DNA from: Pseudomonadota bacterium
GTDB lineage: Bacteria; Desulfobacterota; Anaeroferrophillalia; Anaeroferrophillales; Tharpellaceae
Reading direction: 5' to 3'
DNA: 64,000 nt
NCBI GenBank assembly: GCA_011049115.1
Contig: DSCM01000133.1
Coordinates: 6,849 to 70,848, forward strand
Every line of letters begins with the position of its first letter. Positions within the stretch are counted from its first letter, which is position 1. This document shows, in pieces, positions 15,091-60,597 of the stretch. Both the position numbers and the translations under genes were made by a program. The notes under the pieces are model-generated. The model did no database searches and was not told the DNA's origin. It was given only the letters and a program-made list of their open reading frames with translations.

Positions 15091-15094
15091 GAAA

Positions 15095-15736: not shown

Positions 15737-15737
15737 A

Positions 15738-18644: not shown

Positions 18645-18812
18645 CTTTTTTTAAACCTCTCAACAAAATCTACAGAATTAACCAACCCCATGCAGGCCGG
18701 CTGACATTTTTTCTTTTGCTTACCCCAGGCGTCTGATGACCGTAAACCAAACGCAGAAAACCGGACACATTCGCGTCCGGCATAAAGAAAGCACCTATCT
18801 GATTCTTCGCTC

Positions 18813-25117: not shown

Positions 25118-25167
25118 TTAAAGAGCGTGAAGAATCTTTAAACAAAAGATTCTTCACGCTCTTTAAA
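25118..25167. terminator. Bidirectional terminator hairpin between convergent 3-hydroxyacyl-CoA dehydrogenase and PfkB-like genes
   Basis: ~20-bp perfect inverted repeat ttaaagagcgtgaagaatcttt / aaagattcttcacgctctttaa with short loop. Confidence 0.6.
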
Positions 25168-36691: not shown

Positions 36692-36771
36692 AACAAAGCC
36701 GAGTCCCGCAAACCCAGAGGCGCGACCTTTTGCGACCTGCATCCCTAGACTGAATCCGGAGAACCCTGAAA

Positions 36772-37218: not shown

Positions 37219-37249
37219 CACCCACTGAAAAACCAGGTATGGAGACAAA

Positions 37250-38368: not shown

Positions 38369-38469
38369 TGCCCCCAGATAAATTAATAAAGCAGGAAAAA
38401 CATCATCAATTTCAGACGGCTTACAGTCCCAGATAGTCATTACAAAAAACCGGGAAAACCATAACCGAC

Positions 38470-39309
38470 ATGATAAAAGTCTCTACCCAGGAATTTCAGA
38501 TCTACTGCAAATATGTGTACGATATCTGCGGTATCAACCTGGCCTCCAATCAAAGCTACCTGATCGAAACCAGGCTCGCTCCTCTGCTGAAAAAATTCTC
38601 CTGCAACAGCTTTACCGAGCTTTATAACCAAGCCCGCGGCGACCGCCTGAAAAAAATCGAGCAGGAAATTATTGACGCGATCACCACCAATGAAACCTAT
38701 TTTTTTCGCGACAAATCGCCCTTTGATTTGCTGCAATTTAAAATCATCCCCGACCTGATTGATAAGCGTTCAGGCCGTTCCGGTCTTCCGCCAAGCCTCA
38801 GGATCTGGAGCGCTGCCTGTTCTTTCGGTCAGGAAGTCTACAGCCTTGCCATCACCCTGCGCGAGCTGCTCGGCAACGATCTCGGGAAATTCCGGATTTC
38901 CATTATCGGAACCGACATCTCCGACGAGGCGATTTCACGTTCAAGTTACGGCCTTTATAACCAGTTCGAGATTGAAAGAGGCCTGCCCCCCGAGAAACTC
39001 AGGCTTTATTTCAACCCGGTGGATAATGGATGGCGCATCAAGGATGAGCTGCGGTCACTGGTTTCCTTTCGCAAGCTAAACCTTTTGCAACCATTTACGG
39101 CCTTGGGCAAATTCGACATCATCTTGTGCCGCAATGTGGCGATCTATTTCCCCCTGCCCGACAAGGTTAAACTTTATGAAAAGATTGCCTCATCCCTGGT
39201 TCCCGATGGTTACCTGATGATCGGAGCGCAGGAGAGCCTGACCGGCATCACCAGCCTCTTTGAACCCAAACGTTATCTACGCTCAATTTTCTATCAGCTG
39301 AAAAATTAA
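38470..39309 (+). CDS. cheR: Chemotaxis protein methyltransferase CheR
   Basis: 279 aa; CheR N-terminal all-alpha and SAM-MTase domains (ETYFFRD, IWSAACSFGQEVYSLA, DIILCRNVAIYF). Confidence 0.85.
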   Translation: MIKVSTQEFQIYCKYVYDICGINLASNQSYLIETRLAPLLKKFSCNSFTELYNQARGDRLKKIEQEIIDAITTNETYFFRDKSPFDLLQFKIIPDLIDKRSGRSGLPPSLRIWSAACSFGQEVYSLAITLRELLGNDLGKFRISIIGTDISDEAISRSSYGLYNQFEIERGLPPEKLRLYFNPVDNGWRIKDELRSLVSFRKLNLLQPFTALGKFDIILCRNVAIYFPLPDKVKLYEKIASSLVPDGYLMIGAQESLTGITSLFEPKRYLRSIFYQLKN

Positions 39310-39323
39310 ACTTGGACTTCGCA

Positions 39324-39360
39324 CAAAAAAAGGAGGCGCTGAGTAAGCACCTCCTTTTTT
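39324..39360. terminator. Bidirectional terminator between cheR and convergent HEAT-REC gene
   Basis: A7-aggaggcgc-loop-gcacctcct-T6 (stem with one C·A mismatch). Confidence 0.5.
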
Positions 39361-39385
39361 CGCACAATAGATTCCCCGCGATTTT

Positions 39386-41020
39386 TCAACCCAAATAACG
39401 GGCCAGGGCCACACCGATACTTTCCTGGGTAAACGGTTTATGCAGAATTTCATTGACCCCGGCCTCTTTTGCCGCCTCGTTATCATGATTGTCATTCTGC
39501 GTGGTCACCATCAGGATCGGCAATTCACTTTTGCTGAACGTTCGGCGTAAACGACGGGTCACTTCAATCCCGGTAATCCCTGGCATGTTAAGATCGGTCA
39601 GAACGGCATCGGGTTTGAGCCGGCAGACTTCCACCACCGCGCTTTCCGGATCCATAAAGACATAGGGCTCGTAGCCAAGGACATGAAGCATACTTCGGTA
39701 AATCCCCAAAATCATCTTGGAATCATCAATCGCCACAACCTTCTTTACGGTTTTGCCGGCGGCAATCCCAGGAGAAACATTTCCGAGTTCTTCCGCTTCA
39801 CTGACATAGCCATTAGCTTGAAGGACATTACGAAAGAATTCCAGCGTATCGGCATGAGCCTTTTGCGTAAGGTAGCGAAAGGCCTGCTCACGGAAAAAAT
39901 CAAGTTCGAGAAGATCAAGAAAGATGTTGCCGCTCTGCGTCGTGATAATCGTTTGCACAAGTCCCTGGGCTTCCCGATCCCCGGGCCTGACCATATTTTT
40001 AAGCCCGGCGGCAAGAATTTCATTATAGTTTCGGTCAATCGCGGCAGCCGCCGCCGAACGCACATTGGCAACCGGATCATGCAGACCTGAAGCCAGGGCG
40101 TACGCCCCTTTGGTCAAGGGCAGACGACCAAGGGTTTCGTAAGCGGCAAAGCGAACATTGGCATCCTGCGGCTGCTGATGAAGAAGTTTACGAATCGGGG
40201 CAATCGCCCCTTCATCCCCTATCTCACCCAGAACATTGAGCGTGTGAATAAGCAGATCGGGATCATTATAACGCAGATTTTCAGAAAGCAGCGGCACGAC
40301 CTTGCTCCCCAGCGCGACCAGTTTTTCCTTGCCCGCCGAGCGGATATGGGCGTACTGGGAAGTCAGGGTTTTATTGAGTTTTTCAAGCGCCTCCCGGCTT
40401 TGCACCGCAGAGAAAACCTCGAGAATGGCTGAATCAAATCTTTTTTCCCGACCCAGCTTTTCATCAAGACGCTGCATCGCGGTGGATGAGCCCAAACGTC
40501 CCAAAGCCTGAATGGCGGTTTCCACCAGAACATCATCCTCGGTGTAGAGCAGCTCGGCAATGTTGGAGACCGCGCCCACATCTCCGATATCACCCAAAGC
40601 CCTGACCACCCTTTCGATAATATCGTGATCCTTTTCGTTGACGAGCATAGCCATCAGAACCTGATAAGCATCATCAAACCCCATTTCCCCGGCCAGATCA
40701 ATCAGAAACCCGCGACAATTTACTCGAGAATCCTGAAGAAACTCAAGGTAGATTGCCGGAACCTCGAGAATCCTGGCGACCAGGAGCTCCTTGAACTCGG
40801 GTAAAGAATCCGTCAGATAGGGGAAACGATCAAGAACCAGGGCCAGCAGAGGAATTGCGAACTCAGCCGAACTCAGCCGGAAGAGCTCAAGAGCCTGTTT
40901 TTGCACCTCCAAGTCCATCTCGGCAAGATGAGAAAGAACAACGGCGGCTTTTACGGCATCGTTTTCAGCGATATTATTCCTGATTTCAGTTATAAACGCC
41001 GCAGGTTTGATCTTCGCCAA
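39386..41020 (-). CDS. HEAT-repeat (PBS-lyase-like) protein with C-terminal response-regulator receiver domain
   Basis: 544 aa; repeated ~30-aa alpha-helical HEAT-like units; C-terminal REC VVAIDDSKMILG...TDLNMPGITGIEV...KP. Confidence 0.7.
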   Translation of the reverse strand: MAKIKPAAFITEIRNNIAENDAVKAAVVLSHLAEMDLEVQKQALELFRLSSAEFAIPLLALVLDRFPYLTDSLPEFKELLVARILEVPAIYLEFLQDSRVNCRGFLIDLAGEMGFDDAYQVLMAMLVNEKDHDIIERVVRALGDIGDVGAVSNIAELLYTEDDVLVETAIQALGRLGSSTAMQRLDEKLGREKRFDSAILEVFSAVQSREALEKLNKTLTSQYAHIRSAGKEKLVALGSKVVPLLSENLRYNDPDLLIHTLNVLGEIGDEGAIAPIRKLLHQQPQDANVRFAAYETLGRLPLTKGAYALASGLHDPVANVRSAAAAAIDRNYNEILAAGLKNMVRPGDREAQGLVQTIITTQSGNIFLDLLELDFFREQAFRYLTQKAHADTLEFFRNVLQANGYVSEAEELGNVSPGIAAGKTVKKVVAIDDSKMILGIYRSMLHVLGYEPYVFMDPESAVVEVCRLKPDAVLTDLNMPGITGIEVTRRLRRTFSKSELPILMVTTQNDNHDNEAAKEAGVNEILHKPFTQESIGVALARYLG

Positions 41021-46039: not shown

Positions 46040-48595
46040 TCAAGTTTTAAGCTGCAACCGGCTAAAATCCAGATCGCGGTAAACTCGTTTTCGCGTGTCA
46101 GGCCCGAGCTTTTGCGCCATCTCGCCAAGGTATTCTTCCCGGGTCGGAAGACGGCCGTAAAGAGCGCTCACCGCCGCCAGTTCGGCCGATCCCAGATAGA
46201 CCCTGGCGTCCTTGCCCAGACGATTGTCGAAGTTACGGGTTGAGGTCGAAAAGACCACGGCACCGTCGGCAACCCGAGCCTGGTTACCCATGCAGAGACT
46301 GCAACCGGGAATTTCAATCCGGGCGCCAGCCTTGCCGAAAATGGCATAGTAGCCTTCTTTTCTCAGGGCTTCGGCATCCATGCGCGTCGGCGGAGCCAGC
46401 CACAACCGCACCGGCACCTGTCCGGCATGCCGCAGGATTTCACCCGCCGCGCGGAAATGCCCGATATTGGTCATGCAGCTGCCGATAAAAACCTCGTCAA
46501 TCTCGCGCGGGCACTGAGCCTGTCCCAGCACCTGACTTAACGTGGCGACATCGTCGGGATCATTGGGGCAAGCCAGAATCGGTTCCCGCACCGAATCCAG
46601 ATCGATATCAATCTCCGCCGCGTATTCGGCGTCGGCATCGCCCCGCAACAGATGGGGATGCGCAAGCCACTCCCGCATGGCCTGGGACCGCCGGGCCAGG
46701 GTGGCGGGCGCGCCGTAACCTTCGGCCAACAGACGTTCAATCAAAGCCACGTTGGAGTTCAGGAATTTTTTGACCGGCTCAAGACCGAGCTGCACCGTAC
46801 AGGCGGCGGCGCTGCGCTCGGCCGAAGCGTCGGAAAGTTCAAAAGCCTGTTCGCAGGAAAGCTCTTCCAATCCTTGAATTTCCAGAATTCTCCCGGCAAA
46901 GATATTCCTTTTATTCTCCTTGGCCACCGTCAGCAAACCCATTTCCAGGGCGCGTAACGGAATTGCATTAACCAGATCGCGCAGAGTGATGCCGGGCTGT
47001 AATTGCCCGTGAAAGCGAACCAGAACACTCTCCGGCATATCCAGCGGCATCATCCCGGCCACGGCGGCAAAAGCCACCAATCCGGAACCGGCGGGAAATG
47101 AAAGCCCCAGAGGAAAACGGGTATGCGAATCCGCCCCGGTACCCAGGGTATCGGGCAACAGCAGGCGGTTAAGCCAGGAATGAATCACCCCGTCCCCGGG
47201 TCTCAGGGAAAACCCGGCCCGTTCCTCGATAAAAACCGGCAGGGTGCGCTGCGTTTCGACATCGACCGGCTGAGGGTAGGCGGCGGTATGACAGAACGAC
47301 TGCATGACCAGGTCGGCGGAAAAATTAAGCGCCGCCAGTGCCTTGATCTCATCGCGGGTCATCGGCCCGGTCGTATCCTGGCTGCCGACCGTGGTTACCT
47401 TGGGTTCGACATAGCTGCCCGGTCGCACCCCCTCACAATCACAGGCCCGACCGACAATCTTCTGCGCCAAGGTAAAACCGGCGGTTGACGGCGGCGGGGT
47501 CAGTGGGCGGGCAAAAAAATCAGCCACGTTCAAACCGAGAACCCGACGCGCCCGGGCTGTCAATTCCCGACCCAGCAATAACGGAATCCGTCCTCCGGCC
47601 CGATATTCGTCAGCCAGAGTATTGGGCTGCAGGGAAAAACGGCTGATCACCCGACCATTTTTAATAATTTCTCCGGCATCAGGACGCAGACTGATCAGAT
47701 CGCCGTCAGCCAGTCCGGTAACCGGCGCCACGATGGGTAAAGCCCCGGAATCCTGGGCGGTATTAAAAAAAATCGGCGCGATAATACCGCCGATCACAAT
47801 GCCGCCGCCGCGTTTGTTGGGTACACCGGGCAGATCGTGCCCCAGATGCCACTGCAATGAATTAATCGCTGATTTACGGCTGCTGCCGGTACCGACGACA
47901 TCACCGACGTAAACCAGCGGATAACCTAGTTCCCGCAGTGCAGCCATGCGGGCCAGAGGCTTTTCCATGCGGGCGGCGAGCATGGCCAGGGCATGCAAGG
48001 GAATATCACTGCGGCTGGCGGCTTCCGCAGCCGGTGACAGGTCATCGGTGTTGGTCTCGCCGGGAACCTTGAAAACGGTCAGTTTGATTTCCTCCGCCAG
48101 GGCCGGACGTGCATAAAACCACTCCGCTCGGGCCCAGGACTGCAACAGCTGCTCCGCGCCGGCGTGAGATTGCTTGAATTTCTCGACCACCCAGGCAAAG
48201 GCGTCATAGATCAGCAAGGTATGTTTCAGGGCGAAAATCGCCGCCGCCGCGACCTCGGCTCGTTCATCTTCGAGGGCCTCCAGCAGGGGCGTGATATTGT
48301 AACCGCCGCGCATCATGCCCAGCCATTGCACCGCTGTGACGGCGTCAATGCCGCAATCTGGAGCCCGTCCGGCGATGACCTCGGCCAGGAAGTCGGCCTT
48401 GACTCCCGCCGCTTCATCAACTCCGGGATTAACTCGTTCCCGCAACCAATAATACATTTCCCGCCGTTCGCCGTCAGAGCTGCCCGGCAAGCATTTAATT
48501 ATCGCTTTCACCTCTGCGGCGCTTAAGGGCAACGGCGGAATCCCTAATTGCTGCCGCGCCGCCGCCGCCTTTCGATAGGCTTCGAGAATCTCCAT
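46040..48595 (-). CDS. acnB: Aconitate hydratase B / 2-methylisocitrate dehydratase
   Basis: 851 aa colinear with E. coli AcnB (MEILEAYRK..., GETNTDDLSPA, GDVVGTGSSRKSA, SQDTTGPMTRDE, CSLCMGNQARV). Confidence 0.9.
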   Translation of the reverse strand: MEILEAYRKAAAARQQLGIPPLPLSAAEVKAIIKCLPGSSDGERREMYYWLRERVNPGVDEAAGVKADFLAEVIAGRAPDCGIDAVTAVQWLGMMRGGYNITPLLEALEDERAEVAAAAIFALKHTLLIYDAFAWVVEKFKQSHAGAEQLLQSWARAEWFYARPALAEEIKLTVFKVPGETNTDDLSPAAEAASRSDIPLHALAMLAARMEKPLARMAALRELGYPLVYVGDVVGTGSSRKSAINSLQWHLGHDLPGVPNKRGGGIVIGGIIAPIFFNTAQDSGALPIVAPVTGLADGDLISLRPDAGEIIKNGRVISRFSLQPNTLADEYRAGGRIPLLLGRELTARARRVLGLNVADFFARPLTPPPSTAGFTLAQKIVGRACDCEGVRPGSYVEPKVTTVGSQDTTGPMTRDEIKALAALNFSADLVMQSFCHTAAYPQPVDVETQRTLPVFIEERAGFSLRPGDGVIHSWLNRLLLPDTLGTGADSHTRFPLGLSFPAGSGLVAFAAVAGMMPLDMPESVLVRFHGQLQPGITLRDLVNAIPLRALEMGLLTVAKENKRNIFAGRILEIQGLEELSCEQAFELSDASAERSAAACTVQLGLEPVKKFLNSNVALIERLLAEGYGAPATLARRSQAMREWLAHPHLLRGDADAEYAAEIDIDLDSVREPILACPNDPDDVATLSQVLGQAQCPREIDEVFIGSCMTNIGHFRAAGEILRHAGQVPVRLWLAPPTRMDAEALRKEGYYAIFGKAGARIEIPGCSLCMGNQARVADGAVVFSTSTRNFDNRLGKDARVYLGSAELAAVSALYGRLPTREEYLGEMAQKLGPDTRKRVYRDLDFSRLQLKT

Positions 48596-48639: not shown

Positions 48640-51600
48640 CTATTTGATTTTAATCTCAACCTCTCGACCGGCAACCGTTTCCGCCTCCGCAGCCGGCAAT
48701 TGCGGTTCCAGCAGAAAAAGGCGGCGGTTCTCAACCGGTCCCCGCTCCGCCAGATACGACATTACCGCCCGCGCCCGATGTTGCGCCAGCAAGAGCAGAT
48801 CGGCATCACTGACCTTGACAAAATCACGCAGTCGGGCTTCCTGCAGAAGCGCTTCAATCTTTTTGACCAGTCCCAGAAGATTCTTCTCCTTGACGAAAGG
48901 AGCGGTCTTGTAGGCCCGCCAGAGATAATGCTCGAATTCGGATTCAGTCACCACCACCTCCGCGAGCTCTGAAGCGCCCCCTCCACTGCCGCCTTTTTCC
49001 TTGAATTTTTCGGCTTTGAGCAGATGCTGAAAACGTTCCTCAGATAAAACCTGACGATCACTTACAGACGCAGCCCGGCCTTGAATCTCAACCTTGAGAG
49101 CGGGCCGCTGAAAAAGAACCGCGGCCAGCTTGTCTAGACGACTGCGGGCCATTTCGTCAAGTTCAAAGCGACCGGGCGCAAATTCAACCCGGTTAAGTTC
49201 CTCGCTATCCCCCACCAGGGCCCCCAGCAAAGAAAAGGGGGAGGTTACCGCCTTGGTCACCAGATTGACGAAAATCTTGAAAACCACCCCGCCCAAACTG
49301 AATTTCGGGTCATCCAGATCACCGCGAACCGGGACCCGCAGATGAATTTCCCCCTGCCGATCACGAAGCAGGGCGACCGCCAGGGTGACCGGCAGATTCA
49401 GAGACTGAGAGCTTTCCACCGCCTCGCCGAAAGCAAACTGATCCAGAAAAATCCGGTTGTTGGAGAACAGGTTACGATCTTCAAGCTTGATTTCTAGATC
49501 AAGCGACAGTTTCCCCTTGCCGATGGTCTGGCCGAGATACCTGCCCGAATAAGGAGTAAGTTCGGTCATGCCGAAATCCTGACAGCTGATTTTCAGATCG
49601 GCGAAGAGCTCTCGTCCCAGAGGATCAAGCTCGCCGGTAATCTTAAGCGGGGAATGATGATTCAGGCGACCGCTGAAATTCACGGTGGCCTCTTTTTCTT
49701 CCAGCGAATTCAAACCCTGCACCCTGCCGTTTAATTCATCCAGGACAAGTTCATAGTGCGGTTCCAGAGTACGGTCAAGGTAAAATAACGCGCTGTCCGT
49801 CAGGACTAATTCTTTGAGCTTAAACAAGGCTTCGTGGTTCTGTTCCTGTATCTCATCCTCAACCACCATGGGATTCGCGGCGGCCTTTTTCGATCGCAGA
49901 ACCAGCGCCAGAGAGTTGCTGCCATCCGGCTCTTTGACCAGGCTGGCCTTCAGAGCCTGAATCGACACCCGCTCCAGCTGCACCGCCAAAGGCTGGGACC
50001 TAAGGCTCAGGCCATCACAAGTCAACTTTTCAAGTTTAACGAATTCCTGCGCCTGGGAACCGGCAAGGGCTTGCAGATCGCGCAGTCCGGCGCCGCCGGA
50101 GAACGAGATTTCCGGACCGCTCTCAAGCCGTCGTAAACTCAGATGACCTTTCAACCCGGCCACGCCCCGAGTCAACAAAAGATCAAAATATCCCTGCAGA
50201 TAGGGTTGCAGCGAAGACAACGCCAGATTCTCCAGCCGCAAATCTAACTCAGCCCCGAGGGGATCGAGAACCAGCGGTCCCTGCGCTTTGAGAGTCCCTC
50301 CTGCGCCCAGCTGCAGAAACAGACGGGCGAAGCCTGAGGAAGGTTTCGCGCCAAAACCGACCTTTTCGAGCTCAAGATCCAGCTGTTTGACTTTCAAGGT
50401 GGCCCCGGCGGCCGGCATCAGGTCTTTGAAAACAGCGGTAAATTTATGCAGACCGGCCTTTTCCAGATAAACCTGCCAGGGCTCAGTCGCCCGGGAACCG
50501 TCAGCGACCGTCGGCGCCGAGGAAGTAACCGGAGGCAGCAACCCGGACCAGTCCAGTTCGCCATCACCATTCCGCAACAAATCCAGTTTTCCCCCGACGG
50601 CCTTGAGCGAATCAATCCGGACGGCTTTTTGCCGAAAATCAATCCGCCCTCCGGCAAGTTCGAATTCCGGCAGAGCAAAAACCTCACGGCCGGCTTCCGC
50701 GCGCAGCTGCAGATCCTTCATGCGCACGGCCAAGTCATTGAGCGACAACTCCTTTTCCGCGGCCGAAAAAAACAGGCCGCCGCCCAGATCAATCCGGCCG
50801 TCGACAAAATGCCCCCGAAAATAGTCATGATAATAAGCCCGATAACGCTCCGGCGACAGATTGCCGCAGGCAAAATCAAGCCGGAGCGCCAGTGGTTCAC
50901 TGTCCAGTTCTCCAGCCGCCACCAGGGTTTCCCCGGCACCACTGGTCAACTTGAGGTGATACTTGGCGGTCCGCTCCAATCCACTGGCGAAATTCTGCAG
51001 AGAAAAGTCAAGGTCATTAAATACGGCTGTAAAACCCGGGCTGACCCGCTCATCCCGAAGGTTAACCCGACCATGTTCAATCCACAGTCGGTCCAGAGTA
51101 AAAACCGGGACAGATTTATTATCCCGGTCATTTTGCCGGCCGGTTTCCGGGGTCCGCACCGCAGCCGGAGCCGCAGATTCACCGCCGGACATCGGTGCAA
51201 CGGAACCCTCACCACCTCCCGCCGCGCCGGAAGCCTTATCAACCAGCTGTAAGGAAGGCAACCGAAGTTCGCCATTAGCCTGAAGGCACAGATTCAGCTC
51301 CGGTTCTTTAAAACGCACTTCCCCGAGAAAAATCTCCCCGGCCAGGAGGTTTCCCGGCGCGATCCCGACGACGACTTCCGGCAATAAAAAGAAGCGCTGG
51401 TCTTGATTCTCTCCCAGCCCCCCCAAACTGAGTTCTTGCAAAATAACCGTGCCCTCCAGGCTGAGCCTGGCCGACTGGTTTTCAGACTGATTGAAGATCA
51501 GTTCCAGCCGGCTGGACAAGCGCCCCTGATGCAAAACGAAGTTCCGGGAACCCGGCAGATAAGCCAGATAATGCGGCAGATCAAGATTGTCGATATCGAT

Positions 51601-52290
51601 CTGAAAACGGGTTGCAAGCGAATCGGCGAAGGGTTTGATGGTGCCGCTCAAAACGAAAGGTGTGCCGTTAACCACCGCAGCGAAAGTAGGCTCCACATGG
51701 GTTTCAAGATGAATCGGCAAGTTGGAAATCCGCGGCAGATTGAGGTTGATCTGCTCGGCCCGATGCACAACCCCATGAAAATCGTCGCTGAATTCGATCG
51801 CCGCACCACTCAACCTAATATTATTTAAGGAGAAATGGAAAACGTCTTTGGCTCCGTTTTCCGGCGCCAAAGGTTGGAAGAATAGGGGGAAATCGGCAAA
51901 ATTATAACTGGCATCCTGATTTCTGACTATCCGCAGAAAGGCTCCCGCAACCGTCACCTCTTCCATGACCAGAGCCCGGTTGGCCAAGGACAGAAAACCA
52001 GCCAGATCAAATCTGAGTTGCTCAAACCTGGCCAACGGAATTTCCCCCTGCCGGGCCTCGATCTGCAACCCCTCGAGCTCAAGCAATAACGTAAAAGGAT
52101 TGAATTTTACCTTTTCGATCTTCGTTGAACGATCCAGTTGCAAGGTAAATTCCTTTTCCAGACGTGCATCGATCAGATGCGGCAGCAAGAAAAATCCCAG
52201 CAGGCTGTAAAGCGCGAGCAGAACGACCACGAGCCCGCCGAACCTGCGCCCGAAGAAGGTAATTTTATCTCGTTTTTTTGCCTCAGACAT
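48640..52290 (-). CDS. Giant AsmA/TamB-like (DUF748-type) envelope protein with N-terminal membrane anchor
   Basis: 1216 aa; single N-terminal TM helix then long beta-rich repetitive body typical of AsmA-like lipid-transfer proteins; family assignment is from architecture, not motif certainty. Confidence 0.5.
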   Translation of the reverse strand: MSEAKKRDKITFFGRRFGGLVVVLLALYSLLGFFLLPHLIDARLEKEFTLQLDRSTKIEKVKFNPFTLLLELEGLQIEARQGEIPLARFEQLRFDLAGFLSLANRALVMEEVTVAGAFLRIVRNQDASYNFADFPLFFQPLAPENGAKDVFHFSLNNIRLSGAAIEFSDDFHGVVHRAEQINLNLPRISNLPIHLETHVEPTFAAVVNGTPFVLSGTIKPFADSLATRFQIDIDNLDLPHYLAYLPGSRNFVLHQGRLSSRLELIFNQSENQSARLSLEGTVILQELSLGGLGENQDQRFFLLPEVVVGIAPGNLLAGEIFLGEVRFKEPELNLCLQANGELRLPSLQLVDKASGAAGGGEGSVAPMSGGESAAPAAVRTPETGRQNDRDNKSVPVFTLDRLWIEHGRVNLRDERVSPGFTAVFNDLDFSLQNFASGLERTAKYHLKLTSGAGETLVAAGELDSEPLALRLDFACGNLSPERYRAYYHDYFRGHFVDGRIDLGGGLFFSAAEKELSLNDLAVRMKDLQLRAEAGREVFALPEFELAGGRIDFRQKAVRIDSLKAVGGKLDLLRNGDGELDWSGLLPPVTSSAPTVADGSRATEPWQVYLEKAGLHKFTAVFKDLMPAAGATLKVKQLDLELEKVGFGAKPSSGFARLFLQLGAGGTLKAQGPLVLDPLGAELDLRLENLALSSLQPYLQGYFDLLLTRGVAGLKGHLSLRRLESGPEISFSGGAGLRDLQALAGSQAQEFVKLEKLTCDGLSLRSQPLAVQLERVSIQALKASLVKEPDGSNSLALVLRSKKAAANPMVVEDEIQEQNHEALFKLKELVLTDSALFYLDRTLEPHYELVLDELNGRVQGLNSLEEKEATVNFSGRLNHHSPLKITGELDPLGRELFADLKISCQDFGMTELTPYSGRYLGQTIGKGKLSLDLEIKLEDRNLFSNNRIFLDQFAFGEAVESSQSLNLPVTLAVALLRDRQGEIHLRVPVRGDLDDPKFSLGGVVFKIFVNLVTKAVTSPFSLLGALVGDSEELNRVEFAPGRFELDEMARSRLDKLAAVLFQRPALKVEIQGRAASVSDRQVLSEERFQHLLKAEKFKEKGGSGGGASELAEVVVTESEFEHYLWRAYKTAPFVKEKNLLGLVKKIEALLQEARLRDFVKVSDADLLLLAQHRARAVMSYLAERGPVENRRLFLLEPQLPAAEAETVAGREVEIKIK

Positions 52291-52719: not shown

Positions 52720-53649
52720 ATGAAGATTTTCATTACCGGGGGAAGCGGATTTGTGGGCCGGCACCTGACCCGCGAACTCTCCGCCAGACATCATCAGGTG
52801 ACGATTCTGACCCGAAGGCCGGAATCAGGACGGGGACTGCCTTTCGGAGTCGACTACTGCATCGGAGATCCCAATCTGCCGGGTCCTTGGCAGGAAAGTT
52901 TGAGTCGGCATGAGCTGGTTATCAATCTTGCCGGAGCTTCGATTTTTTCCCGCTGGACCGACAGTAAAAAAGCTGAAATCCGCGACAGTCGTATCCGCAC
53001 CACCCGCCATCTGGTTGACGGCATTGAAATGGCGACCGCCGCAAACCACAAGATCGCCCTGTTAAGCACCTCGGCCGTCGGCTACTACGGCAACCGCGGC
53101 GACGCAAAAGTCGAGGAAAACGACCCGGCGGGCGTCGACTTTCTCGCCCAAGTGGCAAGCGCATGGGAAAGAGAGGCTTTGCGGGCGGAAAACTTCGGGG
53201 CCAGGGTTGTACTCTGCCGTTTTGGTATCGTTCTGGGCCCCGACGGTGGGGCTCTGAGTAAAATGCTGCCCCTTTTCAGATGGGGGCTCGGCAGCCATGT
53301 GGCCAGCGGCCGACAGTGGTTCCCCTGGATTCACCAAAGCGAACTTTCGCGGATTTTCACTTTTCTTGTCGAGCAGACCAATTTAAGCGGAGTTTTTAAC
53401 TGCGTTACCCCAGAACCCGTTACCAACGCAGAATTTTCCCGACAACTGGCCGCCGCTCTACAACGCTGGACCTTGCCGCTGGGCGTTCCGGAGCTGTTCC
53501 TGAAACTGACCCTGGGCGAGATGGCCTCGGTTCTGCTCGGCGGCCAGCGCGTCAGCCCGACCCGTCTGCTGGCCGCCGGGTATAAATTCAGTTTTCCCAA
53601 CCTGAAGGAAGCCCTGGCCGACCTGCTCAGAGATCAATCGTTTAGATAA
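52720..53649 (+). CDS. TIGR01777/YfcH-family NAD-dependent epimerase/dehydratase-like protein (SDR39U1)
   Basis: MKIFITGGSGFVGRHL Rossmann motif; C-terminal DUF1731-like region; 309 aa. Confidence 0.75.
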   Translation: MKIFITGGSGFVGRHLTRELSARHHQVTILTRRPESGRGLPFGVDYCIGDPNLPGPWQESLSRHELVINLAGASIFSRWTDSKKAEIRDSRIRTTRHLVDGIEMATAANHKIALLSTSAVGYYGNRGDAKVEENDPAGVDFLAQVASAWEREALRAENFGARVVLCRFGIVLGPDGGALSKMLPLFRWGLGSHVASGRQWFPWIHQSELSRIFTFLVEQTNLSGVFNCVTPEPVTNAEFSRQLAAALQRWTLPLGVPELFLKLTLGEMASVLLGGQRVSPTRLLAAGYKFSFPNLKEALADLLRDQSFR

Positions 53650-55721
53650 AAAAAAGGCGCTTCCGGCTTCCCGGCCAGGGAAAAGGAAAACGTCTTTTCA
53701 GCGGCGACCACGCCCCGGAAATCAAGTTTTCGGCCGACGCTGTAATAGCGTCCGCGAGCCTGAAGCTCCGGACCGGCGCCGTTGATTTTAAAATCATTCA
53801 GGGACCAGACCTGTTTGCGCACGGAAAACCCTCCGGAACAGGAAGAAAACTCCTTCTTCAGAGCGCTCAGACCGGAGTCCTCGAGAAAACGGTTACCGGC
53901 CAGCCAGAGCGGCACTGCGGCAATCCGCCCCCGGCGCAGCTGCCATTTGCCGTTAAGATCCAGATTATCGTCAATCACGCCTCGCAACGGCAAGCGCCCC
54001 CCGCCGACCATGGCGACGTCCAAGATTCCGCTCAACGGCAAATCCGCTAAAAATTTATCCACTTCTATATTTTTACAAACCAGGGACGTGCGCCAGCGCG
54101 GTTCATGCAACAGCTCATCCAAAAGCAACGAAATGCGCAGTTCTCCCTGGCCAGCGCAGTAGACAATCAGACGTTCAATCTCAAGCTGGGCCAAGTCCTT
54201 GCGGCCGACCAGATTAAATTCGGAAAAGTCATGACCGGAAAGATGCAGCCGCCTGATGCTGCAGTTGCCATCCAGAAACCACCTCCAGCCCGCAGCCTGT
54301 TCCAGCAGCGTCGCGGCCGCCGTCAGATAATCCCTGCCGGAAAAAGGTGCGGCGGCAACCCCGCCCATCGGTTCCGGGTCTGTTTCTGAATTTTTCGCGC
54401 CGGAGCCAACCGGGTTTGCGGTCGAATCCTCTGTTGTGAGCTGTTCCTGATGCCGGTGCAGCGTGAGCGACTCGGAACTGAGCTCCACTTTCAGAACCGG
54501 AGTTTCAAAGGGATTGCCCACCAGTTTGCATTCCCCGGTCAGGGCACCCTGCAGGGAATAAGGCGCCAGACTGCGGCTCGGAACCCGAGCCAAAACCTGA
54601 GCCAGGCTTTCAACCCTGAAACTGCTGACCAGATCGACGAAAAAAGGTTCCCGAAAACGAATCAGTCCCCGAGTAAAAAAAGCCGCCGCACCGGGATAGG
54701 CAAAAGCCGCATTTTTCAGATTAAGATAACCTTCACGGCGCTGAAAGAAACCGGCAAAACCCACATTACAGGAACCGCTGGACCATATTTCTCCAGAGTC
54801 GGTTGCCGCCGGAGCAACAATCTGATGCTCCGCGGCGCGACAGTGACTATTAAAACGCAGGCCCGCCCGCGGGTCTCCGCTCAGATCAAACTCCAAATCG
54901 GCTTCGCTGAAATCCGCGCGCCAGAGCCCTGACTGAGTCGAATCCTCCCGGGAACTCAGGCCAAGGCTCACAGCCTGCGGCAGAGTGAGCTTATGCAGGC
55001 GGCAACTAACCTCCAAATGTTCATTCCCTTCCGCAGGTTGCGATGTTTCTGCAGACGACATCGCCTCCCCCAAGCGATAACGTATCAGTTTAAAGCTGCC
55101 CCGGCCACCCAGAAGAGCAGCGGTCGCATCGAGATTGACACTCTGATTACCAGGCCGCAAGTTCCAGCTGCCGGCACATTCGCTAAGCGTCAAAGGAAAG
55201 GTGAAACCGGGAATATCAGGCAGGCGAACCATCAGGTCATGCCACGACAAACGCAGAGGATCGCGGCCAAAATTCAGCTCTGCGGCGGAAAATAACTCAG
55301 CCATCCGCTCGAAGACGGTATCCGGCTCACTTCCGGCACCGTCGGCACCGTCTTCCGCGCCCCGCAGGGCTGCCCAGCAGACCTCGGCGACCCCATTTTC
55401 AAGGCTGATTTCTGAAAACCTGGGCGCCAGAGCCAAAAGGGAGGGCCAGGAGAAGTAAAACCTGAGAGAGTTGATTCTGAGATTGGAACCGTTGTTCGCC
55501 GCAGTACTTAAACCTTGTGCCAAGATCGCGGGACGCGGCAAAAGCGCAAGCCTTACCGACTCTAGGTGACAAGGCTGTCGCAAGCCTTGAGCCAGATCAT
55601 CGCTCAGAGAGCGACGCCAACCCTCCTGTGGAAACAAGGGGACGAGCAAGACCGCTCCCAGCAGCAGCGCCGGCAAACTCACCCACCCAGAGCGACGAAC
55701 CAAGAATTTGCCCCAGAACAT
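53634..55721 (-). CDS. AsmA-family protein (membrane-anchored, large periplasmic domain)
   Basis: 695 aa; N-terminal TM helix, beta-rich body; C-terminal segment resembling AsmA C-terminal region; assignment tentative. Confidence 0.45.
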   Translation of the reverse strand: MFWGKFLVRRSGWVSLPALLLGAVLLVPLFPQEGWRRSLSDDLAQGLRQPCHLESVRLALLPRPAILAQGLSTAANNGSNLRINSLRFYFSWPSLLALAPRFSEISLENGVAEVCWAALRGAEDGADGAGSEPDTVFERMAELFSAAELNFGRDPLRLSWHDLMVRLPDIPGFTFPLTLSECAGSWNLRPGNQSVNLDATAALLGGRGSFKLIRYRLGEAMSSAETSQPAEGNEHLEVSCRLHKLTLPQAVSLGLSSREDSTQSGLWRADFSEADLEFDLSGDPRAGLRFNSHCRAAEHQIVAPAATDSGEIWSSGSCNVGFAGFFQRREGYLNLKNAAFAYPGAAAFFTRGLIRFREPFFVDLVSSFRVESLAQVLARVPSRSLAPYSLQGALTGECKLVGNPFETPVLKVELSSESLTLHRHQEQLTTEDSTANPVGSGAKNSETDPEPMGGVAAAPFSGRDYLTAAATLLEQAAGWRWFLDGNCSIRRLHLSGHDFSEFNLVGRKDLAQLEIERLIVYCAGQGELRISLLLDELLHEPRWRTSLVCKNIEVDKFLADLPLSGILDVAMVGGGRLPLRGVIDDNLDLNGKWQLRRGRIAAVPLWLAGNRFLEDSGLSALKKEFSSCSGGFSVRKQVWSLNDFKINGAGPELQARGRYYSVGRKLDFRGVVAAEKTFSFSLAGKPEAPFFYLND

Positions 55722-56650
55722 CAGATTTTCAGTCTGTCAAGCAAAGCCTGAATCCCTAGCTGAGCCTTATCAAGGGCAGCCCGCTCCCGGGAATCAAGCT
55801 GCAACTCGATGATGCTTTCGCAGCCTTGGGCCCCCAGTTTCACCGGAACCCCAAAAACACAGTCCGAAATACCATATTCGCCCTGCAACAGAATCGTCGC
55901 CGGCAGAATCCTTTTACGATCCTTGATGATGGCTTCGACCATGCGACCAATAGCGGCGGCCGGGGCATAAAAGGCGCTGCCGGTTTTCAGGAAAGAAACA
56001 ATTTCGGCTCCGCCGTTACGGGTGCGTTCAACTATCGCGTCAATTCTTTCCTGGCTCATCAGGTTCGGCAGGGGGATTCCCGAAACCGTTACATAGCGGG
56101 GCAGGGGAACCAGGTTTTCACCCTGTCCACCCAAAACACAAGCCGTGACATCAGCAACCGAAACCTGAAGCTCTGCGGCAATAAAAGAACTCATTCGGGC
56201 GGCATCGAGAACACCCGCCATGCCCAGAACCCGATGGCGGGGAAGGCCACTCACCTGAGTGGCCACATAGACCATGGCCTCCAGGGGGTTGGTGACCACC
56301 AGCAGAAAAGCGTTGGGTGAATATTTGACGATCCTCTGGGTTACAAAAGAGATGATGGAACTGTTTTTTTTAAGCAGGTCATCACGGCTCATCCCCGGCT
56401 TGCGCGCCAGACCGGCAGTAACGATAACGACATCGGAGTCCGCCGTGTCGGCATAGCTGTTGGTGCCGGTGATCGAGACATCATACCCGTCCAGAGGAGA
56501 AGCCTCCGCCAGATCCAGGGCTTTACCCTGAGGCAGTCCATCAACCACATCATAAAGAACAATATCTCCCAGCTCGCGGGAGATCAGCCAGAGAGCGCAA
56601 GCGGCTCCGACATTGCCGGCACCGACGATAGTTATTTTTTTCCTATTCAC
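55721..56650 (-). CDS. Malate/L-lactate dehydrogenase-family protein (LDH-like MDH homolog) with substituted catalytic dyad
   Basis: 309 aa; ITIVGAGNVGAA NAD motif, GLARKPGMSRDDL substrate loop; but VVTNPLEAM (Asp to Glu) and VLGGQGENLVPL (His to Gln) at the Asp168/His195 positions. Confidence 0.8.
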   Translation of the reverse strand: MNRKKITIVGAGNVGAACALWLISRELGDIVLYDVVDGLPQGKALDLAEASPLDGYDVSITGTNSYADTADSDVVIVTAGLARKPGMSRDDLLKKNSSIISFVTQRIVKYSPNAFLLVVTNPLEAMVYVATQVSGLPRHRVLGMAGVLDAARMSSFIAAELQVSVADVTACVLGGQGENLVPLPRYVTVSGIPLPNLMSQERIDAIVERTRNGGAEIVSFLKTGSAFYAPAAAIGRMVEAIIKDRKRILPATILLQGEYGISDCVFGVPVKLGAQGCESIIELQLDSRERAALDKAQLGIQALLDRLKI

Positions 56651-56686
56651 CAGAGTCCCGTTCCCGATTCAGGCAAGATTCACCAG

Positions 56687-57163
56687 CTAAAACAATGCCG
56701 CCAGCCGCACATTGGCCTGGCGCAGACGCAGGAGCTGCAAAAAAGCCATTCCCCGCCACAAACGCGCGGCGGTTTCCGGAAAAGCAACTTCTAACGCCGC
56801 CGCCCCGACGCCATCCAGGGTCAACAGCCCGGCATCCGTAACCGCCCGCAAGGTGGTTGAATGACAACTTTCATCGGCAAAAACAAGTTCCCCAATCGTG
56901 GCCCCATCAGCAAATTCCGCCATGATTATCGGTTTATCCCACCCCGGGGTTTTTTTGACCGCCTCCAGCCGCCCATTGATGACACAAATCAACAGACTGC
57001 TCTTCTGACCCTCTTCCCAGAGAGTTTCACCGGCGGAAACATTTTGCCGGCTTGCGAACCCGGCGAAATTTTCCCAGTCAGGCAGCGTACAGAATCTGAA
57101 CAGAGGAGAAACCTGCCAGGCAAAAACGGAAACCAATCCTGCAACCACTTGAACCTCAGCCAT
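56687..57163 (-). CDS. Cyclic nucleotide-binding domain protein
   Basis: cNMP-binding-like beta-roll with GETLWEEGQ...GATIGELVF; start trimmed to MAEVQV. Confidence 0.5.
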   Translation of the reverse strand: MAEVQVVAGLVSVFAWQVSPLFRFCTLPDWENFAGFASRQNVSAGETLWEEGQKSSLLICVINGRLEAVKKTPGWDKPIIMAEFADGATIGELVFADESCHSTTLRAVTDAGLLTLDGVGAAALEVAFPETAARLWRGMAFLQLLRLRQANVRLAALF

Positions 57164-57785
57164 CACTGTCTTTTTCGTTTGCGGCAAGCTTTTCTTCCAT
57201 CTGGGCAACCAGGCCGGCAAAGCCCTTCTTTTTCACAATCGGAGCAAACTGACTGCGATAATTACGCACCAGGCTGACATTTTCAATGATGACATCATAC
57301 ACCAGCCAGCGGCCGGCAGTCCCCAATTGCAGTTTGTAACTCAAAGGAATTTCCCGGCCATTGCCGATGACCAGGGTCAGCACCTCGGCCTTTTCCCCGT
57401 CAACTATCTCCTTGACATAGACAACTTCTTCGTTGGCATAGCTGTCAATGGTTGCAATATAGCTTTTTTCCAGCAGTTTCCGGTAAAGCTCAATAAAATT
57501 ACGGCATTCATTCTCATGCAAATCATTCCAGTCACGCCCCAGCGAAAGCTTAGCCATGCGCGGCAGATCAAACTGAGTAAACACCACCTCGGTAATCCGC
57601 TGGCGACGGAGGACCAGGTTCTCGTCTCCCTTCAGAGCTTGATCCCGCAAAACCTCAAGGAGCAGGTTGATACTGGCCTCTAGCTGGCGCCGGGGACCGA
57701 CCTCTTCCCCGCCGAGCAGCGACTGCGGCAGAACAAAAGCCATCAAGCATAAAACCATGCCTAGAAAACGAACGCGGGCCATCAA
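57156..57785 (-). CDS. mlaC: Phospholipid-binding periplasmic protein MlaC (Ttg2D family)
   Basis: 209 aa with signal peptide; Ttg2D/MlaC-like core (FDLPRMAKLSLGRDW...ELYRKLLEKSY). Confidence 0.75.
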   Translation of the reverse strand: MMARVRFLGMVLCLMAFVLPQSLLGGEEVGPRRQLEASINLLLEVLRDQALKGDENLVLRRQRITEVVFTQFDLPRMAKLSLGRDWNDLHENECRNFIELYRKLLEKSYIATIDSYANEEVVYVKEIVDGEKAEVLTLVIGNGREIPLSYKLQLGTAGRWLVYDVIIENVSLVRNYRSQFAPIVKKKGFAGLVAQMEEKLAANEKDSDG

Positions 57786-57816
57786 AAAAACTCCGTAGGA
57801 TTTAAGACGTTAACGA

Positions 57817-58545
57817 TTACGGCAGAATTTCACGCCGATGTTGCTGAAAGGCATCGCGCACCGCAAGATACGGATCAAGCGCGCCACTGAGCATTTTCTC
57901 ATATTCACCCAAGCGGAACGAGGTCCGGTTGATGGCATTGGAACCCTGCACCGCGACCGCACTCACGGGGTTCTGGTAGAGGGCATAAAAAAGCGGCGAG
58001 GCCAGAGTATCTCCACCCAGACCAAGGATGCCGCGAAAATCATGCGGTCCCCAAAAAGGCAGGACCAGATAGGGACCGCTACCCATCCCGTAGGTCGCGA
58101 GGGTCGAGGCAAACTGATATTCATGGGATTTCAGGCCGTCATAGGAGGCTGGATCCATCAGTCCGCCGACCCCCACGGTACTATTCAGCATAAACCGTAA
58201 AAACGACTCTTCCGCGGCTTTGAAGCGACCCTGAAGCAGACAATTGATAACCCGGGTGGGTTCCAGCAGATTACTGAAAAAGTTGAGCAGGCCGGTACGG
58301 AACAAACTCGGGGTTACGATTTTATAGCCCCGGGCAACCGGTTCCAGAACCCAGAGCTGCAGACGATCATTAAAAACAAAGAACACCCGGTTTAAAACTT
58401 CAAGTGGATCTTTGACGGAAACCGCCTCGCCGTCATATTCAGCGAACTCATCCGTCTCTAGCCCCGGCGGTTGCGAAAATCCGGGAGTCATATTCCAGAA
58501 CAATAAAGCGACCGCCAAAAAAATCACCAGTATTTGCCGAGACAT
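57817..58545 (-). CDS. mlaA: Outer-membrane lipoprotein MlaA/VacJ
   Basis: 242 aa; VacJ signature LEVLNRVFFVFND...VARGYK...LNSTVGVGGLMD. Confidence 0.75.
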   Translation of the reverse strand: MSRQILVIFLAVALLFWNMTPGFSQPPGLETDEFAEYDGEAVSVKDPLEVLNRVFFVFNDRLQLWVLEPVARGYKIVTPSLFRTGLLNFFSNLLEPTRVINCLLQGRFKAAEESFLRFMLNSTVGVGGLMDPASYDGLKSHEYQFASTLATYGMGSGPYLVLPFWGPHDFRGILGLGGDTLASPLFYALYQNPVSAVAVQGSNAINRTSFRLGEYEKMLSGALDPYLAVRDAFQQHRREILP

Positions 58546-58557
58546 GTAAATCCCCTG

Positions 58558-59001
58558 TTACTCAACTTTACCAAAAACATATTTGCTGATCAAAGCCTCC
58601 AGATCGACGGCAGATTCGGTTTCGGTTATTTTACCGCCGTCCGGCAGAAAATCCTCCTCGGCTCCGGGTGTCAACTGCACGTACTTATCTCCGATTATAC
58701 CCTGGGTTTTAATGGAAGCAAAAACATCGCTGCCGATTTTTACTTCAGGCTTCACCAGCAGTGCGACCCGGGCTCGATCCTCATGCAGCGAGATACTTGC
58801 GACCTTACCGACTTCAACCCCGGCGATTTCAACCCGGGCTCCGCTTTTAAGGCCACTGACCGAGATAAAATCAGCATAAACACGATAATAATTTCCGCCG
58901 AAAAATTCAAGGCCGCCAAGATTAAGGGTCAGATAGGCGATCGCGAGCAGACCGACGAGCATGAAAGCCCCGACCGTTATCTCCAGATTAAATCTTTTCA
59001 T
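58558..59001 (-). CDS. mlaD: MCE-domain protein MlaD
   Basis: 147 aa; N-terminal TM anchor then MCE domain (YYRVYADFISVSGLKSGARVEIAGVEVGKV). Confidence 0.8.
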   Translation of the reverse strand: MKRFNLEITVGAFMLVGLLAIAYLTLNLGGLEFFGGNYYRVYADFISVSGLKSGARVEIAGVEVGKVASISLHEDRARVALLVKPEVKIGSDVFASIKTQGIIGDKYVQLTPGAEEDFLPDGGKITETESAVDLEALISKYVFGKVE

Positions 59002-59806
59002 ATGCTTCTTTCTCTGAATTCATAGAAGGATCAAACAGCTCATCCGCGGAACTGTACGCAGCCCCCATCACTCTCAGGATAAAGGCCCGTACAAAGGGGT
59101 CACGACTGCGCTGCAAGTCTTCCGGTGACAGACAGGCCAGGACTTTCCCCTCATGGAGAATGGCGATTCTGTCCGCCAGATTAAAAATTTTGGGAATATC
59201 GTGACTGACAATGACACAGGTGTAACCCAGTTGCTTTTGGGTTTCAAAAAACAAACGATAAACATCGTGACTTTTGACCGGATCCAGACCGGTGGTCGGC
59301 TCGTCAAAAAGCAGGATATCGGGTTCCAGTTGCAGGGCCCGGGCCAGTCCGACCCGTTTTTTCATCCCACCGCTCAACTGCGATGGGTACTTGTCGGCAC
59401 TGCCTTCCAGATCCATCTGGGCCAGGGCGGTGGCCACCCTCTCCTGAACGATTTTCTCCGGCAGCCGACTGCGTTCCCGCAGAGGCAGCGCGACATTATC
59501 AAAAACCGTCATCGAATCAAACAGGGCCACCCCTTGAAAAAGCACTCCGAAACGGGTGCGCATTCGACTCAGGGCCGCGCCGCGCAAAGCACAGATATCG
59601 GTGCCGTCGATCAGCACCTGCCCCCGGTCGGGATGGATCAGGCCGAGAATATGTTTAAGCAGAACACTCTTGCCCTGACCGCTCTCACCACAGATCACGG
59701 TGGTCGCGCCGCGCTCAATCTCGAGATTCACTCCACGCAGAACCGGCTGCGTCCCGAAACTTTTATGAATATCAATCAGCCTGATACAGGCATTGCCGCT
59801 TGCCAT
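58988..59806 (-). CDS. mlaF: ABC transporter ATP-binding protein MlaF
   Basis: Walker A GESGQGKS, ABC signature LSGGMKKRVGLARAL, Walker B ILLFDEPTTGLD; start trimmed to MASGNA just downstream of mlaE stop. Confidence 0.85.
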   Translation of the reverse strand: MASGNACIRLIDIHKSFGTQPVLRGVNLEIERGATTVICGESGQGKSVLLKHILGLIHPDRGQVLIDGTDICALRGAALSRMRTRFGVLFQGVALFDSMTVFDNVALPLRERSRLPEKIVQERVATALAQMDLEGSADKYPSQLSGGMKKRVGLARALQLEPDILLFDEPTTGLDPVKSHDVYRLFFETQKQLGYTCVIVSHDIPKIFNLADRIAILHEGKVLACLSPEDLQRSRDPFVRAFILRVMGAAYSSADELFDPSMNSEKEAYEKI

Positions 59807-59811
59807 GAGCT

Positions 59812-60597
59812 CTACATCATCAAAGAGGTGATCACATAATCGGCCACCAGAACAGCCACGGAAGAAACCACTACCGCCGAAGTTGTGGCCCGACTCACCC
59901 CCTCGGCGCCAAAGCCCCAAGCCCGGCGGGTAACCCAGAATCCATGCTCGGCACAGATCCAGACCAGAAGAAAAGCGAAACATAGCGATTTGACAAAACA
60001 CATTTTCAGATCAAGTGCGGTCACGCTGCCCTGCATGCTGGCCATGTAAGCCCCGCCATTGCCGTGCAGCAGGACCACCCCAACCATATAACCACCGAAA
60101 ACCCCAACCACATTGAAAATCGCGGTCAAAAGCGGCACCGAAAGCAGACCGGCGAACAACTTGGGGGCCACCAGAAAACGGTACGGATTGATAGCCATAC
60201 AATCCAGCGCGTCAATCTGCTCCGAAATCCGCATAATTCCCAGCTCAGCACACATCGCCGAACCGGTTCGGCCGATCACCATCAAAGCTGTCAGCACCGG
60301 ACCCAGCTCCCGAATCAAACTTAGAGCCACCGCCGCCCCCAAGGCGCTGGCCGAACCGTATTTACTCAAGGTATAATGCCCCTGCAGGCCGAGAACCATG
60401 CCGACAAAAGCTCCGGTAAAAAAGATCACCAGAAACGAGCCTGAACCGATCACCTTGATCTGGTACAACAGCGGCCTGATTTTATACGGCGGCTGAAAGC
60501 CGCCGGCCAGGGTCATGAGCAGAAAAAGGGCTGAGCGCCCCATACTTTCCAGACTCCCCAACCCCCAACGGCCAAATCTCTGCAAACTGTCAAACAA
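59812..60597 (-). CDS. mlaE: ABC transporter permease MlaE
   Basis: 261 aa; MlaE-family permease (GIMRISEQIDALDCMAINPYRFLVAPKL). Confidence 0.85.
   Translation of the reverse strand: MFDSLQRFGRWGLGSLESMGRSALFLLMTLAGGFQPPYKIRPLLYQIKVIGSGSFLVIFFTGAFVGMVLGLQGHYTLSKYGSASALGAAVALSLIRELGPVLTALMVIGRTGSAMCAELGIMRISEQIDALDCMAINPYRFLVAPKLFAGLLSVPLLTAIFNVVGVFGGYMVGVVLLHGNGGAYMASMQGSVTALDLKMCFVKSLCFAFLLVWICAEHGFWVTRRAWGFGAEGVSRATTSAVVVSSVAVLVADYVITSLMM

Follow-up and report, generated by a model that had tools for sequence, protein, structure and literature searches.

A malate dehydrogenase homologue with glutamine in place of the catalytic histidine, selectively maintained at a resident mdh locus

A malate dehydrogenase (MDH)-like gene in a 64,000-nucleotide stretch of a Desulfobacterota genome assembly (GCA_011049115.1, contig DSCM01000133.1; the whole stretch is referred to here as the window) encodes glutamine in place of the catalytic histidine, His195 in lactate dehydrogenase (LDH) numbering, and leucine in place of the first-shell residue Met199. 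The LDH/MDH superfamily serves as a textbook model of how enzymes work and evolve, and throughout it His195 is regarded as both invariant and essential. What emerges here is a form of the resident MDH that lacks this histidine, is rare, has recurred and is maintained by selection; loss of the histidine is correlated with Met199Leu and usually accompanied by a change at position 143. Our preferred reading of sequence and model, held tentatively, is that the protein may be a redox-crippled MDH, retained for some function that needs its ligand binding and its oligomeric scaffold.

An LDH-like malate dehydrogenase by descent and fold

The gene and the active-site and cofactor positions discussed below are as follows, in window coordinates.

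55721..56650, minus strand: MDH-like gene, 309 amino acids, with a GTG start and a stop codon sharing bases with the ATG start of the following gene (TGATG)
56549..56623, minus strand: NAD-binding region with GAGNVG (G10, G12, G15) and Asp34 (Asp53, NAD specificity), intact
56375..56413, minus strand: active-site (mobile) loop GLARKPGMSRDDL with Arg83 (R102) and Arg89 (R109), intact
56288..56290, minus strand: Asn121 (Asn140), retained
56279..56281, minus strand: codon GAG, Glu124, position 143 of the N140-P-x-D143 motif, Asp changed to Glu
56204..56206, minus strand: codon GAT, Asp149 (Asp168), the dyad partner, retained
56195..56197, minus strand: Arg152 (Arg171), ligand of the substrate C1 carboxylate, retained; its codon differs synonymously between two alleles
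56123..56125, minus strand: codon CAG, Gln176, at LDH position 195, where each of the 237 canonical relatives has the catalytic His
56111..56113, minus strand: codon CTG, Leu180, first-shell position 199, Met in 236 of the 237 canonical relatives

An earlier reading of the sequence alone had described the product as a homologue collinear with LDH-like bacterial MDHs, and this is borne out on several grounds. Profile searches find the Ldh_1_N (PF00056, 1.2e-41) and Ldh_1_C (PF02866, 3e-26) domains, and the protein scores 453.4 bits against TIGR01763, the NCBIfam equivalog for "malate dehydrogenase" (cutoff 351.85), whilst its 224.6 bits against TIGR01771 fall short of that model's cutoff of 303.55 and it lies below the LDH cutoffs. 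The L-lactate dehydrogenase signature of Q102, D/E199 and T246 is absent, the corresponding residues being R83, L180 and A226. The protein aligns without gaps to the MDH structures from Chloroflexus and Thermaerobacter (7AOB, 1UXI/1GUY) at ~55–57% identity. An AlphaFold2 model computed from a 70-sequence alignment (A1) reached a predicted local distance difference test score (pLDDT) of 91.6 and a predicted template modelling score (pTM) of 0.91, and its top Foldseek matches were 7AOB and 4CL3, with template modelling (TM) scores of 0.95–0.96 and root-mean-square deviations of 1.5–1.6 Å. The GTG start is kept in all seven of the clade loci that were translated.

By descent and by its modelled fold we therefore assign the protein to the type 3 (LDH-like) malate dehydrogenases. 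The signature of this type is R102, M199 and A or S246 (PMC9486893); Arg102 (R83) and Ala246 (A226) are found in the window protein, whereas Met199 is not (L180). The protein thus lacks two of the defining features that were tested, His195 and Met199, and should not be classed as an established EC 1.1.1.37 enzyme. Judged on its sequence, it clearly belongs to an active enzyme family and yet has lost a key catalytic residue, as would be expected of a pseudoenzyme.

One residue of the catalytic dyad is replaced

For the active-site positions the canonical comparison set was 237 His-bearing relatives. Where these read GGHGD(T/S)MVPL, the window protein reads GGQGENLVPL, and the replacement of catalytic His195 by Gln (Q176, CAG, against His in every canonical relative) is exactly as the sequence-only reading had it. 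That reading had gone further and taken both residues of the catalytic dyad to be replaced, through a change of Asp168 to Glu, which proved to be a numbering error. The glutamate in NPLEAM, Glu124, lies three residues past Asn121 (Asn140) and is position 143; the true Asp168 is D149, in the motif GVLDAAR, 27 residues ahead of position 195 and 3 ahead of Arg171, and it is invariant in the 70-sequence alignment. This placement follows from the spacing of the His177-Asp150 dyad and Arg153 in Escherichia coli MDH (PMC11461317) and from the first-shell list, which includes Leu167, Asp168 and Arg171 (PMC4109310). Only one residue of the dyad, His195, is therefore replaced. The neighbouring Asp to Glu and Thr to Asn differences that had been listed alongside are real, but they form no part of the anomaly: D197E and T198N (E178 and N179) are ordinary for the clade, whose His-bearing sisters read GHGE[NS]M. 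The first-shell change of Met199 to Leu (L180) had gone unremarked.

The remainder of the pocket is that of a malate dehydrogenase. The NAD-binding glycine motif and the substrate loop are both present, as had been claimed, and so is the remaining first shell (R102, R109, L112, N140, L167, D168, R171, G236, G237, S245, A246 and P250); every predicted NAD(H)- and C4-dicarboxylate-binding residue is kept and the proton shuttle is lost. Lineage-specific changes at columns conserved to at least 90% are E124, C171, Q176, L180, R245, T252, A296 and I300, and amongst these there is no compensating new histidine. A histidine elsewhere in the active site had been named as the observation that would overturn the idea, and the alignment turned up no such alternative. 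H139 was considered as a compensating residue and rejected, since the second allele described below does not conserve it.

His195 (E. coli His177) is the proton donor/acceptor in the accepted mechanism (PMC11461317; PMC9486893), and Gln has no usable pKa, which argues against a working enzyme. Canonical acid/base catalysis should thus be impaired and MDH activity is mechanistically doubtful, and of the candidate classes that the sequence-only reading put forward, a pseudo-enzyme or an altered chemistry appear to have been rightly chosen. In the main competing account the protein still works as an oxidoreductase in the cell, whether as an MDH or as an oxaloacetate reductase biased in direction; Gln195 would polarise the carbonyl, the proton would come from water or from the retained Asp168, and M199L and D143E/N would be compensatory. 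We consider this possible, if doubtful. It draws support from the conservation of all the other catalytic, loop and cofactor residues, and from the strongly exergonic character of oxaloacetate reduction (PMC11461317).

The variant is genuine and under purifying selection

A third account is that the glutamine is an artefact, the His codon having been misread in sequencing or assembly, or that the gene is decaying, the allele having been inactivated recently and drifting towards a pseudogene. The changes of His to Gln and of Asp to Glu are each single third-position changes, and the window holds apparently frameshifted genes (a split phosphoglucomutase at 7956-9348 and a split antiporter subunit at 16646-18644), so the assembly is not flawless. 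Against this, four contigs that come from different assemblies and sources carry exactly the same protein sequence, which has entries in NCBI (HDS17245.1), Logan, ENA and JGI. Furthermore, a second allele from another metagenome-assembled genome (MAG) (P0001, GCA_016936995.1), whose protein is 96% identical and whose gene differs at 76 of 930 nucleotides, keeps CAG, GAG and CTG at codons 176, 124 and 180. The two alleles differ by 62 synonymous and 14 nonsynonymous changes with the frame intact, giving a ratio of nonsynonymous to synonymous rates (dN/dS) of 0.064 at dS 0.32, the lowest of the seven shared operon genes (the others range from 0.094 to 0.385). Sequencing error and pseudogene status are rejected by the multiple assemblies, the second allele and dN/dS together; H195Q is neither an artefact nor the mark of a decaying gene and is selectively maintained. 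We regard the artefact account as very improbable and effectively refuted.

A control pair of canonical-His sisters (P0004 and P0005) gave a dN/dS of 0.056 at dS 0.28, and selection on the window protein is therefore not relaxed. Across 16 first-shell codons the two alleles show five synonymous and no nonsynonymous differences, where 10.9 nonsynonymous differences are expected under neutrality (P(0) = 1.8e-5); selection thus continues to act on the ligand pocket with glutamine in place, and the first shell is conserved to a degree far above the neutral level. In a neighbour-joining (NJ) tree the Gln lineage is nested within its clade with a root-to-tip distance of 0.30-0.31, compared with 0.25-0.36 for the clade, and accelerated evolution on the Gln branch was rejected, as these distances show no marked acceleration. 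A dN/dS equal to that of active sisters is also what a still-working oxidoreductase would display.

Selective retention of the pocket together with a specific Gln/Leu pair would also suit a neofunctionalised enzyme, that is, an MDH scaffold and Arg triad of R102, R109 and R171 put to a reaction which needs carbonyl polarisation but no acid/base His, such as oxaloacetate decarboxylation, keto-enol tautomerisation or turnover of a different 2-oxo/hydroxy-dicarboxylate. We think this unlikely: apart from the changes described, the window pocket is identical to that of malate/oxaloacetate-specific MDHs (R102, A246), the His and Gln forms occupy the same gene neighbourhood, and no precedent was found in the literature searched.

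The gene is the resident MDH of a conserved operon

The gene lies in an operon (53634-60597) with the following neighbours.

56687..57163, minus strand: single-domain cyclic-nucleotide-binding protein, 158 amino acids, upstream; a conserved neighbour of the MDH gene throughout the clade
53634..55721, minus strand: 695-amino-acid gene, downstream, apparently translationally coupled to the MDH gene; here without a Pfam match
57156..60597, minus strand: mlaE-F-D-A-C genes, upstream; kept in every clade locus whose contig extends there

We compared the window and second-allele loci with those of six sisters (P0004, P0005, P0008, P0013, P0017 and P0029), whose proteins are 68–76% identical to that of the window and all carry His. 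The order cyclic-nucleotide-binding gene, MDH, downstream gene is common to every clade locus examined. The downstream gene is intact at 674-695 amino acids in all but one, the exception being P0029, whose long-read contig shows nothing but short fragments of it; sister orthologues of the 695-residue protein show at most weak or faint DUF748/YhdP (AsmA-like) matches. As this gene order is shared with canonical-His sisters, the window gene is an in-situ descendant of a canonical MDH. The suggestion that it might be a regulatory paralogue is not supported, the gene being the positional orthologue of canonical MDHs in the same operon and not an extra copy; an extra paralogue is likewise rejected for the locus on synteny. 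The 64-kb window contains a single MDH-like gene.

Other active-site-region changes occur in the Mla-linked clade. Besides H195Q these are, all in His-bearing sisters, N140D (VVTDPLD) in P0025 and P0029 (the latter at L134 5001-5930), D143Y in P0013 (L004 8001-8930), D143N in P0015 and D143E in P0023. On a rough count there are five such events in ~30 Mla-linked sequences vs. four in ~210 elsewhere (p = 0.002), which suggests, on these sequences, that catalytic constraint may have loosened across the whole Mla-linked MDH clade.

Just downstream of the operon lie a gene for a 1216-residue DUF748/YhdP/AsmA protein (48640-52290) and that for aconitase B (46040-48595).

Loss of the histidine has recurred

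Two sequence collections, neither of which contains the window lineage, were scanned with a codon-degenerate pattern for the peptide G-G-Q-G-[D/E]-x-hydrophobic-V-P-hydrophobic-x-R. Amongst 185,579 species-representative genomes the pattern hit 55 loci, 54 of them chance matches and one an MDH homologue (L037), whilst in metagenome contigs it hit 65 loci, two of them MDH-like (L085 and L082). The His-less loci outside the window lineage are listed here.

CAYXTR010000003.1, 4502-5449, plus strand: MDH orthologue of a Planctomycetales MAG (L037, protein P0123), with H195Q, M199L and D143N
L085, 721-1644, plus strand: deeper, gammaproteobacterial-type His-less clade
L082, 1219-1862, plus strand: same clade
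L127, 260-1183: same clade
L129, 254-1174: same clade

The Planctomycetales protein reads GGQGDELVPLPRY and SNPLNAM and also carries G244E and S245G. Its 119 closest relatives (65–74% identical) all have His and all but one have Met199, and those inspected read SNPLD; its neighbourhood, FtsY / NusB / RibH / x / ferritin / MDH / YHS, is that of its canonical relative P0135. The gammaproteobacterial-type clade (L085, P0243-P0246 and P0261) has Q, S or C at position 195 and L or Q at 199, with E at position 143 in P0244-P0246 and P0261. It keeps GxGxxG, D53, R102, R109, D168 and R171, and is changed at L112, N140, G236, A246, P250 and much of the loop, the shared changes being L112F, N140S/T and P250L/I. 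Its locus lies beside a 5'-3' exonuclease, a pseudouridine synthase and a fructosamine kinase, as does that of canonical P0249. L085 and L082 differ by 14 synonymous changes and one nonsynonymous change, and the deeper clade is therefore also under purifying selection. A further protein, P0251, has R at position 195 and is probably another independent loss of the histidine.

P0123 is 56% identical to the window protein and the gammaproteobacterial-type clade 45%, and each is nested amongst His-bearing relatives. By sequence comparison there are thus three independent His-less lineages including that of the window, each at a resident mdh locus. Across the three, Q195 always occurs with L199, which is found in only one of the 237 His sequences (Fisher p = 1.8e-6), and each of the three shows a change at position 143 in at least some of its members; a structural rationale for the coupling of positions 143, 195 and 199 may be supposed. 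The window lineage also has three changes at positions conserved to at least 95%, A252T, S296A and V300I, in common with L085, a His-less protein unrelated to it, either as additional convergence or by coincidence. Databases label all these His-less proteins "malate dehydrogenase".

The recurrence of the same Q + L pair is a point in favour of a still-working oxidoreductase, as is the presence of Gln in at least three of some four independent losses, though Gln accounts for two of the nine single-base routes from His. Gln195 and Leu199, with Glu or Asn at 143, could on this account form a recurrent, selected alternative active site, reached at least three times at resident mdh loci, able to pass hydride to oxaloacetate, or to run a related C4-dicarboxylate reaction, without the His-Asp proton relay; we give this a rather low probability. 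The older clade tells against it, for there Ser and Cys also occupy position 195, N140, G236, A246 and P250 are changed as well, and the pattern looks like canonical chemistry abandoned. So does the rarity of the variant, with one MDH match amongst the species genomes scanned. The same older clade offers some support to a neofunctionalised enzyme, its pocket having been remodelled non-randomly (F112, S/T140, L/I250) whilst the arginines and Asp168 stay.

What the protein may do

Under our preferred reading, a redox-crippled MDH kept for binding, the protein would still fold as an MDH and, from its retained residues, is predicted still to bind NAD(H) and oxaloacetate or malate. The glutamine may mimic the hydrogen bond of the histidine to the substrate C2 oxygen, and possibly also that to Asp168. 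It would be unable to donate or accept a proton, so redox turnover would be strongly reduced, perhaps by orders of magnitude. Candidate roles are the sensing or sequestering of NADH or oxaloacetate/malate, or that of a structural or moonlighting partner of the surrounding envelope-lipid operon, and the protein would then not be the main MDH of the cell's tricarboxylic acid (TCA) cycle. We infer both the loss of catalysis and the binding-dependent role.

Several points weigh against this reading. The loss of MDH activity is a prediction from the sequence, and a constraint like that of active sisters, with every catalytic residue but the histidine kept, is equally the pattern of a working enzyme. 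In three independent lineages the gene occupies the resident mdh locus, apparently the sole one, which again favours a still-working oxidoreductase, and loss of MDH would need a backup in the form of Mqo, malic enzyme or a second MDH. The repeated Gln + Leu pair could be a compensated catalytic solution and not a binding-only state. Finally, the link to the Mla operon is common to the canonical-His sisters and absent from the other two His-less lineages, so this operon does not explain the loss of the histidine.

Activity in these proteins would call for a revision of the accepted requirement for a proton relay; inactivity would make them a clean case, found in nature, of a core metabolic enzyme repeatedly becoming a ligand-binding pseudoenzyme without gene duplication. 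In addition, automatic "malate dehydrogenase" labels may lead metabolic reconstructions of these MAGs to credit a complete TCA cycle wrongly.

Other features of the window

The split phosphoglucomutase/phosphomannomutase gene (7956-9348, minus strand) consists of two overlapping open reading frames (ORFs), domain I at 8806-9348 and domains II-IV at 7956-8885. The junction contains a C-run (GCCCCCCTG), and the split stems either from a frameshift that made the gene a pseudogene or from an assembly error at the homopolymer. A membrane module resembling complex I or a group-4 hydrogenase (11333-20825, minus strand) comprises an Oxidored_q6+Fer4 subunit, NADHdh and several Proton_antipo_M subunits; its 49-kDa subunit has a weak, sub-threshold 30-kDa match at the N-terminus. 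One antiporter-type subunit of this module is apparently split over three adjacent overlapping ORFs (16646-17653, 17638-18114 and 18105-18644); the first two match successive stretches of the profile, which points to frameshifts.

Elsewhere there is a tyrosine recombinase of the Phage_integrase family, XerC/D-like (1564-2493, minus strand), and a tRNA-Phe(GAA) (10743-10818, minus strand), which is the only RNA gene in the window; no rRNA was found in the 64 kb. A chemotaxis cluster at 33413-41020 encodes a CheA-CheW-receiver hybrid (1092 amino acids), CheB, CheR and a HEAT-repeat response regulator. The guanine-plus-cytosine fraction is ~0.51 across 20-44 kb compared with ~0.55-0.56 on both sides. 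Two further ORFs have sub-threshold Pfam matches only: one of 403 amino acids (21604-22815, minus strand) to LCIB_C_CA, beta-carbonic-anhydrase-like (E = 8.5e-4), and one of 573 amino acids (25163-26884, minus strand) to PfkB (E = 3e-4).

Comparison with known systems

In the literature searched we found no data on natural or engineered H195Q forms of MDH or LDH and no description of a His-less MDH homologue. The sequence-only reading had named active homologues with the same residues as evidence that would count against it, and no characterised Q-type homologue was found there either.

The closest known system is the type 3 NAD-MDH, represented by Chloroflexus aurantiacus (1GUY/4CL3), Thermaerobacter marianensis (7AOB) and the TIGR01763 family. 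The window protein shares its domains, 55–57% identity and its fold (TM 0.95-0.96), and has GxGxxG, Asp53, R102, R109, N140, D168, R171 and A246; it differs in carrying Gln for His195, Leu for Met199 and Glu for Asp143. The Planctomycetales protein P0123 and the gammaproteobacterial-type clade resemble it in combining H195Q with M199L whilst keeping the Arg triad, Asp168 and the NAD motif, but they are of independent origin and stand in other neighbourhoods (ferritin/YHS and 5'-3' exonuclease, respectively). The gammaproteobacterial-type clade is moreover older, with L112, N140, G236, A246, P250 and the loop also changed.

Two systems offer functional parallels to a dehydrogenase scaffold kept for something other than redox turnover. 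According to PMC8564385, citing Schreier 2018, a non-functional variant of plastid NAD-MDH rescues the mutant through a non-enzymatic role in the envelope FtsH12-FtsHi complex. As presented in that source, the likeness lies in an MDH-family scaffold with an essential non-catalytic role at an envelope membrane machine, and in selection without redox function; the difference is that the plastid protein is a naturally competent enzyme whose inactive form was engineered. The window protein, for its part, is tied to Mla and AsmA-like proteins by gene order alone. The alanine-dehydrogenase-like protein ADLP regulates CoA transferase in Thermus thermophilus (bioRxiv 10.1101/2025.10.31.685773). Like the window protein it is a dehydrogenase homologue that has lost a catalytic residue and kept NAD(H) binding, in its case acting as a regulator. 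It belongs to another fold family and is a separate accessory paralogue near its target, whereas in the window it is the resident orthologue itself that has changed.

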